The notes beneath the pieces were generated by a model, which searched no databases, was not told the origin of the DNA, and saw only the letters and a program-made list of their open reading frames with translations. Source: a virus (lineage: Duplodnaviria > Caudoviricetes). Taken from it: a stretch of DNA of 64,000 nt. The position numbers and the translations under genes were made by a program. Positions 21,063 through 29,471 of the stretch are shown one piece after another (positions within the stretch are counted from its first letter, which is position 1; the number at the start of each line of letters is the position of its first letter). The stretch spans positions 1 through 64,000 of the IMG/VR virus record IMGVR_UViG_3300031992_000070. One strand, written 5' to 3'.

Positions 21063-21136
21063 TGGTCTTGGGTGGAATCGAACCACCGATTAACGCCTTT
21101 CGGTAAGCGTTGCTTCATCCAACGAAGTTCAAGACC
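21063..21136 (-). ncRNA. tRNA-like RNA with a 10-nt anticodon loop
   Basis: Acceptor GGTCTTG/CAAGACC, D arm CTTC/GAAG, T arm GGTGG-TTCGATT-CCACC; loop TTACCGAAAG. Confidence 0.7.
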
Positions 21137-21299
21137 AAGTTGCCCCACCGCTGTAGGGCTTAGTTGAATTTTTAAATAATTGTTTAACTTTTAACCATAA
21201 CAATGATACACCCTCACGGGCTTATATACGATGCAAAGTTACAAATAAACTTTGAATATTTCAAAATCCTATAACATAGTTTAAGTTAAAAAACCAAAA

Positions 21300-26600: not shown

Positions 26601-27220
26601 TTTTTCACCTTGCTTTTCAAGCCAAGCAACAGAATCTGTTAAAAGAAATATAGTCTTACTGTCAAGCACATTATTTAGCCTATAATATTCTAAAAAATCA
26701 ATAAGTTCTTTCCTTATCCTCTCATCCTCGCTCTCTGGAACAAAGTCTGCGCATATTCCACGTGCAACTTCAACTGTAATTTTTCCACTATTAACCATCT
26801 CTTGTAGTTTGGCTATAGTGTCTTTATGTAATTTCTTGTAGTCCATAATCACAACAAATTTAATTCATGTAATTTCTCAATCATAGTCACGCAAGCATCA
26901 ACAATGTTGTCTGCTTTAGTATGTAAATCACTTATGTGTGGATATGTAATATAGTTGTCATCAAGTGCTATTATTGGTTTACTGCCTTGAATTTCTGGTA
27001 AAATACCAAGCAATGCTGCAAGACTCCAACATCTAATATCGTAGTTAAAATCTTCTTTGCCATCTTTGAACAATGGTGTAGGACAAATAGATTCTACATC
27101 TGGTGGAAAGTAATCATTATCAATCTGACAAAAATAATACATATCTGCACTCTCTATTGGCAGTATCTCTGCCAACTTGCGGCTCTGTTCTAAATCAGTG
27201 TAACTTTTAATTGTTGCCAT
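23632..27220 (-). CDS. Run of small hypothetical ORFs (23632-23874, 24014-24241, 24234-24455, 24460-25098, 25102-25293, 25387-25695, 25829-26044, 26049-26852, 26849-27220)
   Basis: Codirectional, short spacers; modular motifs (EDERIRKELI, EEPVS, WKPSDEQM). Confidence 0.6.
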
Positions 27221-27253
27221 ACTTTATCCTTTCTTTTAATTGTTACTTATTAG

Positions 27254-27379
27254 TGGAGAAAGCAGACTCGAACTGCTATCTTCTGATGGTATGTTATGGG
27301 ATGCCTCCCAATGGCGCAGATTTTTTATGTACAGTCACTGCTATGACCACCAGATGTTCTGCCTTTGAACTATTTCCCC
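27254..27379 (-). ncRNA. tRNA-like RNA with a 55-nt insert in place of the anticodon loop
   Basis: GGGGAAA/TTTCTCC acceptor, TA-GTTC-AAAGGCA-GAAC D arm, TTCGAGT T loop, 9-bp extended anticodon stem. Confidence 0.7.
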
Positions 27380-27458
27380 AAACGCCCCACCGCTGTGAGG
27401 CTAACTGTTATAAAATTCATAAATATGAAAGAATACCCATCGCGGGCTTATATCAAAA

Positions 27459-27716
27459 GTGGCACATTCTGCCAAGGTGTGTTGTTACACCAAAGACGCC
27501 TACGCATTGCGTGAAGGTCATTAACCTTGCTCATTCCTATTTTCCCACAGCTACATCAGAAATGTGCACCATAATTGTATTTTATTCCGTTATCAGGCTT
27601 TATAATCATACAACCGCAAGATACTATTTTCCGTTTTGCCACATGTGGTAGTTCGCGTCACTCTTTAAAAGATGGCTACCTCCAAGCCTACTTTCCTTGT
27701 CTGTAAAACGTGCCAC
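27459..27716 (-). ncRNA. Structured RNA resembling 23S rRNA H42-H44 (GTPase-associated centre) with a 169-nt insertion
   Basis: Own promoter TAAATTTG at 27739-27746; closed by GTGGCAC/GTGCCAC; GTAGGCTTGGAGGTAGCCATCTTTTAAAGAGTG ... GTGTAACAACACACCTTG. Confidence 0.75.
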
Positions 27717-27790
27717 TACATTATCAAAGAACACTTTGCAAATTTACAACTTTAATTTTGAATATTACAAGTTCGTTAGAATAGATTAAC

Positions 27791-28540
27791 TTAAATATCT
27801 TTAATCTTATTTGTTCCGAAAGTTCCGTTGTTAATCCATCTGAAATACTCGCTGTTCATTTCATCCTGCCATTCCTTTTGGTCGTCATACATCATATCAT
27901 CAGATACATAAGAGAAAAATCTCAAGAGAATTTCATTTACCATATATCCGCGCAGGATGCCGCCTCCATCCATAAACACGTCGTATGGAGCAATCCCTTT
28001 GTCTTCGTTGTTCTTTGATGACTCGTCGCCAACTACGTCAAAGTGCATCCAGCGCAACACAATGCTTTCAACCTTTCGTGCAAACTCTATATTTTCCAAT
28101 CCTAAAGGCTTTAGATACCTTTCCGTGTATCTGTTGAATGCGTGCGGAACGATGTCAATAACCATACCAAGACCTCTATTGCTTCCGTTTACCTTGCTTT
28201 TCATCGCAAACGGGTCGATTGCAAGAATACCCTTTCCAGTATTGCCGTCAATCTTGTTGCTTCCGTTTTTTCTTTTCTTTTCTATTTCGTATGTGGTATA
28301 ACAGAAACTCCAGAACTGTCCTTTCTTTACAGCTTTCTTTGACTTACAGATAATAAGCATCAGCCATTTGTTGTTCCTGTCATCATTAAACCGTATTCTC
28401 TGTACATAAGGGAATCTTGTACCGCGTCCAAACTTGTCCCATATCTCACTTTTAAAATCATCGTAGACGCTTATTGCAGTATTGTAGATTCGGAATGCTT
28501 CAAATGCTTTTTCCTCATCGTTCATCGTAGGTAATACCAT
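27791..28540 (-). CDS. Hypothetical protein
   Basis: Likely start MVLPTMNDEE at 28540. Confidence 0.6.
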   Translation of the reverse strand: MVLPTMNDEEKAFEAFRIYNTAISVYDDFKSEIWDKFGRGTRFPYVQRIRFNDDRNNKWLMLIICKSKKAVKKGQFWSFCYTTYEIEKKRKNGSNKIDGNTGKGILAIDPFAMKSKVNGSNRGLGMVIDIVPHAFNRYTERYLKPLGLENIEFARKVESIVLRWMHFDVVGDESSKNNEDKGIAPYDVFMDGGGILRGYMVNEILLRFFSYVSDDMMYDDQKEWQDEMNSEYFRWINNGTFGTNKIKDI

Positions 28541-28556
28541 ATCCTTATTTTTGTTT

Positions 28557-29471
28557 TTATTTAAATTTATATACCTTGTTGAATTTTCTCTTTTTTGCCA
28601 TTTTGTAGTAGTTGATAATGTCGCATCCGCTTTTGAAACCCATAAGCCACTGTGTGCGTGCATACATAACCCATCTTCCGTCATCAAGGGTTCTCAACGC
28701 AAAGTTGTACAACTCCATGCTTTTCCATCTTGCGCAGTCCTCCATAAGATGCTGTGCAAATACAGAGAAGTCTTTCTGTATGCTTTTGTCTGTATTATCC
28801 CAGAATACAGGAGTATAGTGTCTGTCGAAAAAATCCTTCCCGTGTTCATCAATCATAAAATCATATACCCTGCGTATATCGTTCATTCGCTTGAAAGTCC
28901 AAGCAACAACTTCGTCGTGCAGCCAGTAGAACTCATCCAACACATTAGATGTGTCATCAATATTCCTTTGTACGGGACGAACATCTATATAGCTTGAGCC
29001 TCCGTATATAGTCGTGCTGTAGTCAACGGTAGCAGCTATAAGGTCTGGTCTTCCTCTTTCATACAATGTCCTGTAGAACGTAGGATAGTCGCATCCTTTA
29101 CTGCGGAATGCACCGATACCGACACTACGACCTACTTTTGTATTGAACCTGAATCTCTTCATTACACATAACAGTTATCTGTTGTCAATCTTTTCGTGCG
29201 TAGTGTTAATGCGGCCTTTGTCAAGCAGATAGTGCATGATGTCTTTCAGATTCTTGTCGCGGTCTTTCTTTGCGCCAGACCACATTGCAACTACCTTGCT
29301 TTGCAGTTCAAGGTATGCCTCTGACTGACCTTTTCGCAGCATATTCAAGTATTCCACATACACCTTTGTTATGTCTTCGTAAGACACTTTCTCACTAATC
29401 ATCAAATCAAGAATGATTGCCGCAATAAATTCCTTTGGCAGCGACTTTAATGCTTTTATTATTTCTTCCAT
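28557..29471 (-). CDS. Two hypothetical ORFs (28557-29162, 29175-29471)
   Basis: Codirectional ORFs. Confidence 0.6.

Follow-up and report, generated by a model that had tools for sequence, protein, structure and literature searches.

The window, that is, the whole stretch of 64,000 nucleotides analysed here, is part of an 80.9-kb virus record of IMG/VR. The virus is a bacterial phage, with a DnaN-type sliding clamp and other phage replication proteins encoded in its genome, and the public runs in which stretches of the window were found are gut metagenomes of sheep, goat and cattle (ruminant gut). The motifs TATCTTTG and the related TANNTTTG are mildly enriched across the window (87 found, 71 +/- 8 expected), and the enrichment of TANNTTTG-type motifs hints at a host among the Bacteroidota, which fits the ruminant-gut origin.

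Two - strand ORFs, 27791-28687 and 26849-27220, are separated by 570 nt. In this gap, and on that same strand, lies an RNA element that resembles the GTPase-associated centre (GAC) of 23S rRNA and is called here the GAC mimic. It is single-copy in the phage genome, as judged by a scan with the covariance model R1 described below. No rRNA was found near it, the Rfam LSU model giving no hit over the 80.9-kb genome at E values up to 10. Since the genome has no LSU hit and the element is placed between protein genes, we regard it as a mimic and not as rRNA.

About 80 nt downstream of the mimic, on the same strand, is a tRNA-shaped RNA (27379-27254) which scores 41.8 bits with the Infernal tRNA model. 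It has canonical acceptor, D and T arms, and about 55 nt containing two small hairpins take the place of the loop on its 9-bp 'anticodon' stem; CCA is not encoded. A second odd tRNA was identified on the - strand at 21063-21136 (Infernal, 37.5 bits), with a 10-nt anticodon loop, UUACCGAAAG. ARAGORN called no tRNA in the window, both of these tRNA-like genes included. Each of them is preceded, 4-5 nt upstream, by a hairpin cassette, AGCCNNACAGCGGUGGGGC, which is also found on the - strand (27384-27402 and 21142-21160). The exact 13-mer ACAGCGGTGGGGC is shared by the two cassettes (27402-27384, with the repeat at 21142-21154), where chance would give 0.4 matches with up to 2 mismatches permitted, and the cassette may be a processing or promoter signal. 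In the RNA run X18, one contig (depth 2.1) joins position 27407 back to 27207 ('goes back 201'), a joint of the kind that a tandem repeat, or else a circular form, of the unit with the tRNA-like gene would give.

The ORF that follows on the - strand (26849-27220, 123 aa) matches neither a Pfam nor a PHROG family. Short parts of it turn up repeatedly and at high depth in DNA and RNA runs of the ruminant gut, spread over many different contigs. In a related phage (L121), whose upstream protein is 71% identical, the upstream gene is followed after about 117 nt by a homologue of the 267-aa ORF, and at this syntenic place neither the GAC mimic nor the tRNA-like gene nor the 123-aa ORF is present. 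The three are therefore considered to form an accessory module. On the + strand, an ORF of 146 aa with a TTG start (27211-27651) runs antisense to the mimic and to the tRNA-like gene. It has no family match, its orientation opposes that of all its neighbours, and it is most likely spurious.

Layout of the RNA and likeness to 23S rRNA

Comparison with 23S rRNA identifies the element as a stand-alone non-coding RNA of about 260 nt, whose 5' and 3' parts together rebuild the 58-nt GAC. The rebuilt features include the three-way junction of H42, H43 and H44, the U1060-A1088 and 1082-1086 pairs, the 1072/(1092-1099) triple and the 1095 loop. Once 169 nt are excised, the - strand from 27699 to 27473 is collinear, without gaps, with positions 1051-1108 (E. 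coli numbering) of 23S rRNA. The letters and segment lengths are those given in the original prediction. Identity to 23S rRNA is 37/58 over 1051-1108 and 35/47 within 1057-1103, and the 34-mer at 1057-1090 matches at 26 of its 34 positions; the best match in any of 20 shuffled versions of the window is 22/34. The 23S reference 58-mer (1051-1108) is, letter for letter, a genuine 23S stretch found in locus L105.

The whole is closed by a basal stem, as had been claimed, although with 13 bp (11 Watson-Crick and 2 G-U) instead of 11. It is formed by AGUGGCACGUUUU (27717-27705) and AGAAUGUGCCACU (27470-27458), and two substitutions in a variant contig preserve its pairing; the 3' strand, which is followed by UUUGAUAU, scores as terminator-like. 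After the 5' strand come the internal-loop letters ACAGA (27704-27700) and, directly after them, CAAGG (27699-27695, equivalent to 1051-1055), the 5' strand of the top of H42, which pairs with CCUUG at 27477-27473 and is followed by a single A. The mimic of H43, AAGUAGGCUUGGAGGUAGCCAUCUU (27693-27669), is collinear with 23S positions 1057-1081 and carries the 1067 loop UGGAGGU. Next, at 27668-27660, are the junction UUAAA (1082-1086) and the 5' strand of H44, GAGU (1087-1090), where A1088, G1089 and U1090 are invariant in the family described below. The inserted arm then extends over 165 nt (27659-27495) and, as foreseen, is closed by a helix of its own, GACGC/GCGUC (GCGTC in DNA letters), all five pairs of which covary in the family. 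It is separated by the conserved linker UUUG (27494-27491; UUUR in the family) from the 3' part of H44, GUGUAACAACAC (27490-27479), which comprises G1091, U1092, the loop GUAACA (1093-1098), A1099, C1100, A1101 and C1102. The domain is completed at 27478-27473 by A1103 and the 3' strand of the top of H42, CCUUG (1104-1108), and the pairs of H42 also covary in the family.

The four compensatory differences described in the original prediction are present, namely CAAG/CUUG in H42, A-U at 1058-1080, U-A at 1092-1099 and U-A at 1090-1101. Both loops had been said to be retained. This holds for the 1095 loop, GUAACA, but not fully for the 1067 loop, which reads UGGAGGU (G1067, G1070, U1072) where rRNA and most of the family have UAGAAGC; the combination G1067/G1070/U1072 is that of a small minority, 3 of 91 family members including the window element. 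The insertion, formerly located at 1091/1092, has to be moved one position in the 5' direction, to 1090/1091, in view of the covariation in the family and of the fact that R1 aligns genuine 23S rRNA with only the arm and the linker deleted.

The arm is predicted to fold into a long irregular hairpin and two short hairpins. In a 93%-identical variant from a DNA run, 8 of 8 substitutions at paired positions of the arm keep the pairing. An arm-specific 27-mer had no match in the metagenome contigs and, in view of this lack of close relatives, the structure of the arm rests on the predicted fold and on one variant contig. An origin of the arm in rRNA was considered and rejected, the best rRNA match being of 11 nt with an E value of 0.54, that is, a chance match.

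Regarding expression, one sheep-gut metatranscriptome (two runs) yielded contigs identical to 27462-27702 (241 nt) and to 27499-27698 (200 nt), at a depth of about 9; as assembled contigs from a single sample they hint at a stable RNA. The contigs of the RNA runs cover neither 27411-27457 nor 27740-28200, and the latter, which belongs to the upstream gene, is covered in DNA runs. Contig ends near 27702 recur in a DNA run and therefore cannot be taken as RNA ends. The claim that the RNA has its own promoter was not borne out, since the sigma-70-type match is 9/12, no better than in shuffles. The promoter-like stretch in question, TTGTAA-18-GATAAT (27749-27720, - strand), comes from a consensus scan with 2 found and 2.7 expected, which is not significant; inside it, the scan for TANNTTTG located the Bacteroidota-type TAAATTTG (27746-27739, - strand). 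After the element, 2 terminator-like hairpins were found with 0.3 expected. The second of these, GCCCGCGAUGGGU followed by AUUCUUUCAU, is placed at 27447-27435 on the - strand.

A family of phage RNAs and its conserved positions

The window element is one member of a large family of phage RNAs. A scan of IMG/VR with a pattern of the H43-junction core, in which five positions were left free, matched at least 119 stretches. Among the matches listed two are genuine 23S rRNA, and the remaining ones, at least about 85 distinct sequences, are family members. In the listed members AAAGAGU is followed by unrelated inserts (of at least 41 nt if properly aligned), then by YUUUGG-Y-GUAAYA-R-CACAC and by the complement of the member's own 5' flank. 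Prokaryote assemblies hold about 28 full-length members. In these genome contigs the pattern TTTGGYGTAAYARCACAC gave 99 stretches, 80 of which were taken further as loci; 28 of these loci are full members with at least 64.7 bits, and most others are chance matches. The isolates carrying members include Flintibacter muris DSM 110149, Clostridiaceae strain 9 and bacterium D16-76, and these copies are presumably located in prophages. Moreover, unannotated members were confirmed with R1 in the cultured phages Pseudomonas pf16, Acinetobacter ME3, Cronobacter GAP32 and Ralstonia RSP15, and blastn with the core suggests further ones in Aeromonas 4_4572, Pectobacterium CBB, Xanthomonas XacN1, Paenibacillus Pd_22F and others. 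With the 601-nt region as query, blastn gave no match among cultured phages; the core alone finds relatives.

R1 was built only from phage members. The window element, which is among the seed sequences, scores 107.9 bits (E ~1e-31, model positions 1-194), partly by construction; members from cultured phages and genomes that were not in the seed score 65-121 bits. The model also finds genuine 23S GACs, at 60.2 and 44.6 bits, and aligns them over their whole length, the arm and the four linker positions being all that is deleted. When Rfam 15 was run over the element nothing reached the gathering score and nothing appeared with E up to 10 (GOLLD, ROOL, L10_leader and introns included), and on 12 other member loci it found only tRNAs. 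The check by Rfam cmscan called for at the outset gave no hit of the LSU model, and the reciprocal comparison of R1 with genuine 23S rRNA was strongly positive. A 58-nt domain split by 169 nt is beyond the reach of the 2925-position LSU model, and for this reason the reciprocal test was relied on. The RNA matches no family of Rfam 15, and no description of a phage GAC mimic was found in the full-text literature that could be searched.

The window element has the marks of the family, that is, the GACGC/GCGUC arm at 1090/1091, the UUUG linker, the U1090-A1101 pair and G1089. G1089 is present in all members and U1090-A1101 in 87/91, phages of gammaproteobacteria included, unlike 23S rRNA of the E. 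coli type, which has A1089 and A1090-U1101. Since both features are fixed even in gammaproteobacterial phages, the family looks like one lineage that spreads among phages and not like the result of repeated capture from hosts. The exact 5' core of the window element is common only to L067 and L090, and their arms differ.

A tRNA gene called by ARAGORN is found within 1 kb of 52 of 63 members, always on the same strand, and within 100 nt in 34; in the Pseudomonas putida phage pf16 the element, at about 29.41-29.61 kb of KU873925.1, takes up the space that separates tRNA-Asn from tRNA-Pro. The tRNA-shaped gene some 80 nt downstream of the window element, where ARAGORN calls no tRNA, would fit this habit of the family of lying beside tRNAs. 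No circularly permuted members were found in IMG/VR, and the six metagenome matches of permuted type resemble mostly two members in tandem. Tandem pairs of members occur in metagenome and genome contigs (loci L227-L231 and L160). In the RNA run X18 a contig with a depth of about 205, detected at the joint 27688/27478, consists of a family 3' core, 32 nt and a family 5' core. Its 32-nt spacer forms a 10-bp hairpin, and the contig represents either two tandem members or one circularly permuted member.

The arms of the family range from at least 41 nt, among properly aligned members, to about 350 nt and fall into several recurrent classes, with no family-wide motif found. Compact members contain little beyond the core and one hairpin. 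The arms of 9/63 members, from two lineages, contain a sarcin-ricin-loop (SRL) hairpin, AGUACGAGAGGA(R)C, of which 1260 shuffled arms gave 3 hits. The large-arm members with this hairpin, in the form AGUACGAGAGGAGC or a variant, are L002, L005, L008, L015, L016, L072, L082, L107 and L029, and they thereby imitate both rRNA elements of the factor-binding site. The arm of the window element is without the SRL motif.

Covariation was followed in an alignment of 32 members, with the window element as its first row, and in a second one of 96 members built with R1. In the former, 93% of the cells of the GAC secondary structure and arm-closing helix are paired, against 70% with shuffled columns and 35-55% with the partners slid, and all 8 H42 pairs, 1058-1080, 1092-1099 and all 5 arm-closing pairs covary. 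The 1058-1080 pair occurs in the family as GC39/UA25/AU21/CG4, and the first pair of the arm-closing helix varies among G-C, A-U and U-A. The tertiary contacts vary in concert as well. Position 1072 tracks 1099 (CG19/UA12/UG1 in the 32 members), and the 1072/(1092-1099) triple is CCG in 68 and UUA in 19 members of the 96-member alignment, the window element having UUA. This exchange of C/(C-G) for U/(U-A) is reportedly the same as in comparative analysis of rRNA. The 1082-1086 tertiary pair is UA15/CG5/AU2, these counts coming from members found via the 3' half and being hence free of selection on those positions. U1060 and A1088 are invariant in the family, so that the contact between them is kept.

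Positions invariant or nearly so are G1059, U1060, G1071, A1077, A1084-A1085, G1087, A1088, G1093, U1094 and A1098, the invariance of the fold-building nucleotides being counted in sets not selected on those positions. In a viral set of 67 members whose selection did not involve the 3' half, the 1095 loop has G1093 and A1098 throughout, U1094 in 66/67 and A1095 in 64/67, and these exposed bases are conserved beyond the needs of folding. The three U positions of the linker are each U in 64-66 of 67 members, and the fourth position is G59/A8. At position 1067, 74 of 90 tabulated members have A; for the family as a whole the shares are about 81% A and about 14% G. Below G1055-C1104 the pairing of the H42-like stem is kept and its sequence is free (family columns 1-6 and 276-281). 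The original prediction had extended the likeness to the L10 part of the stalk base; a stem that keeps its pairing without conserved sequence lends no support to such a uL10 site. In turn, its view of a selected structure and not a scrap of rRNA agrees with the covariation in helices and tertiary contacts, the single copy, the absence of nearby rRNA and the absence from Rfam.

Known systems and possible roles

The phage RNA has in common with the GAC of 23S rRNA the segment lengths, the three-way junction, the tertiary pairs, the base triple and the 1095 loop. It differs from it in being free-standing, with its own closing stem and outside the ribosome, and in having an arm of 41-350 nt and a UUUR linker between 1090 and 1091. 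Moreover, the phage family fixes U1090-A1101 and G1089 and keeps only the pairing in H42, and the 1067 loop of the window element is UGGAGGU. The leaders of ribosomal-protein operons (the rplJ L10(L12)4 leader and the L1, S8 and S15 sites) are also RNAs that imitate the rRNA site of a ribosomal protein. Nevertheless these are cis-acting, belong to cellular operon mRNAs and copy a local motif, whereas the phage RNA is a discrete gene that copies a whole tertiary domain, and no Rfam leader family matches the element.

Phage tRNAs, as spare or decoy substrates, share with the mimic the genomic home and strand and also the logic proposed here, that of a phage copy of an attacked translation component. 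A tRNA is usable in translation, whereas the GAC copy cannot enter the ribosome and can therefore only bind, or be attacked, in the ribosome's place. The species 1 and 2 RNAs of T4 (rnaC and rnaD) are likewise small stable RNAs in a phage tRNA cluster. They were tried as members of the family and discarded, since R1 reaches no more than 8.6 bits in the T4 tRNA region, with a match that is located elsewhere. GOLLD and ROOL are, in the same way, large structured non-coding RNAs of phages found near tRNA genes, but the element has no Rfam match to either, and we know of no likeness of GOLLD or ROOL to rRNA.

We propose, with moderate confidence, that the RNA is an off-ribosome, uL11-binding decoy of the GAC which competes for a host factor by which that site is recognised or attacked. 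The RNA would be made in quantity together with, or like, the phage tRNAs, and would fold alone and bind host uL11 as the isolated rRNA fragment does; the off-ribosome uL11-GAC surface would then compete with ribosomes for the host factor. Binding of uL11 is to be expected from the established biochemistry of the 58-nt fragment and from the conserved determinants; the fragment is said to fold autonomously and to bind L11 and thiostrepton. The conserved exposed bases of the 1095 loop, together with the SRL that certain lineages carry, suggest that, over and above uL11, there is a ligand which recognises the factor-binding face. No Ribosomal_L11, SpoU_methylase or RelA_SpoT gene was found in the phage, hence any partner would be encoded by the host. 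The first candidate for such a factor would be a toxin or defence enzyme directed at the GAC or the SRL, for example an H44-directed ADP-ribosyltransferase or nuclease, followed by RelA and the stringent response and, in third place, by translational GTPases. The toxin Tre23, which ADP-ribosylates H44 at 1095-1098 (PMC8661411), is a precedent for an attack on the GAC. On the other hand, the G found at 1067 in about 14% of the family, and also in the window element (G1067, G1070), speaks against a ligand needing A1067. Two further points count against a decoy, namely that a stoichiometric decoy would be a weak answer to a catalytic toxin and that, to our knowledge, no anti-phage system targets the GAC.

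In our ranking of the readings, the toxin or defence enzyme would be followed by uL11 depletion with RelA, then by translational GTPases and then by a pure scaffold. All positions that build the uL11-binding fold are conserved and the phage has no L11 gene of its own, as would suit an RNA that simply soaks up uL11. Ribosomes would then be deprived of uL11, either giving it up or not receiving it in the first place, and since uL11 is required for the activation of RelA, the latter would not be activated and the cell would be left 'relaxed' (relC-like), in favour of phage production. We find this unlikely, because uL11 is firmly bound in the ribosomes already present and lytic infection, as a rule, brings the synthesis of ribosomes to a halt; in addition, the conserved exposed bases of the 1095 loop are not needed for uL11 binding, and the SRL copy of some members would be left unexplained. 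If the RNA, together with uL11, served instead to bind a translational GTPase (EF-G, IF2, RF3 or EF-Tu) or a GTPase-like host protein and to sequester or re-tune it, the SRL hairpin of 9/63 members would find a place, as GAC and SRL make up the factor-binding site, and so would the conserved A1095; oligonucleotides of the GAC and of the SRL reportedly bind EF-G. Nevertheless we judge such a role quite unlikely, as the window element and most members have no SRL copy, A1067, which is a factor contact, varies, and the sequestration of elongation factors would also hurt the translation of the phage itself.

Another explanation has no link to a ribosomal ligand and takes the GAC fold as a stable tertiary clamp that presents or protects a variable arm, the latter being the functional part. 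Every properly aligned member does have an arm, never shorter than 41 nt, the longest reaching about 350 nt, and several classes recur; that of the window element is structured, with its pairs kept in the variant. Yet the arms have no common motif, the core is nearly invariant including exposed loop bases without a role in folding, and compact members are hardly more than the core and one hairpin, all of which makes this explanation very unlikely. Finally, the element could be a by-product: a scrap of 23S rDNA captured from a host, an intron or a mobile insertion flanked by remnants of exons, a cis leader, or part of the + strand ORF at 27211-27651. The high local identity to 23S rRNA and the insertion inside a conserved rRNA helix might suggest so, as might the overlap with the 146-aa ORF (TTG start) on the opposite strand. 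We give this hardly any credence, since the flanks bear no likeness to rRNA and instead pair with each other and covary, and since G1089 and U1090-A1101 (87/91) differ from 23S rRNA of the gammaproteobacterial type even in phages of such hosts. Moreover, there is no intron or other Rfam hit, the genes downstream are of tRNA type and do not encode ribosomal proteins, and the + strand ORF has no family and runs against the direction of all its neighbours.

Returning to the decoy of the GAC, it is conceivable, though we advance it only tentatively, that this portable copy of the factor-binding site (GAC, or in some lineages GAC and SRL) serves to disarm an unrecognised class of host effectors. 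Hundreds of phages with very different hosts have kept a whole functional domain of the ribosome, reproduced even in its base triples, and such retention implies that the uL11-GAC surface is read off the ribosome by something important in the infected cell. The partner could reveal a new axis of conflict between phage and host, be it a defence aimed at rRNA, control over the stringent response or the capture of translation factors, and could explain part of the role of phage tRNA arrays. For structural biology, the family would be a natural series of GAC variants with tolerated insertions. The cultured carriers (pf16, GAP32, ME3, RSP15, XacN1 and others) make the family experimentally tractable and, if the decoy reading is true, the RNA would be the first decoy of an rRNA domain and a handle for the discovery of GAC-directed immunity.
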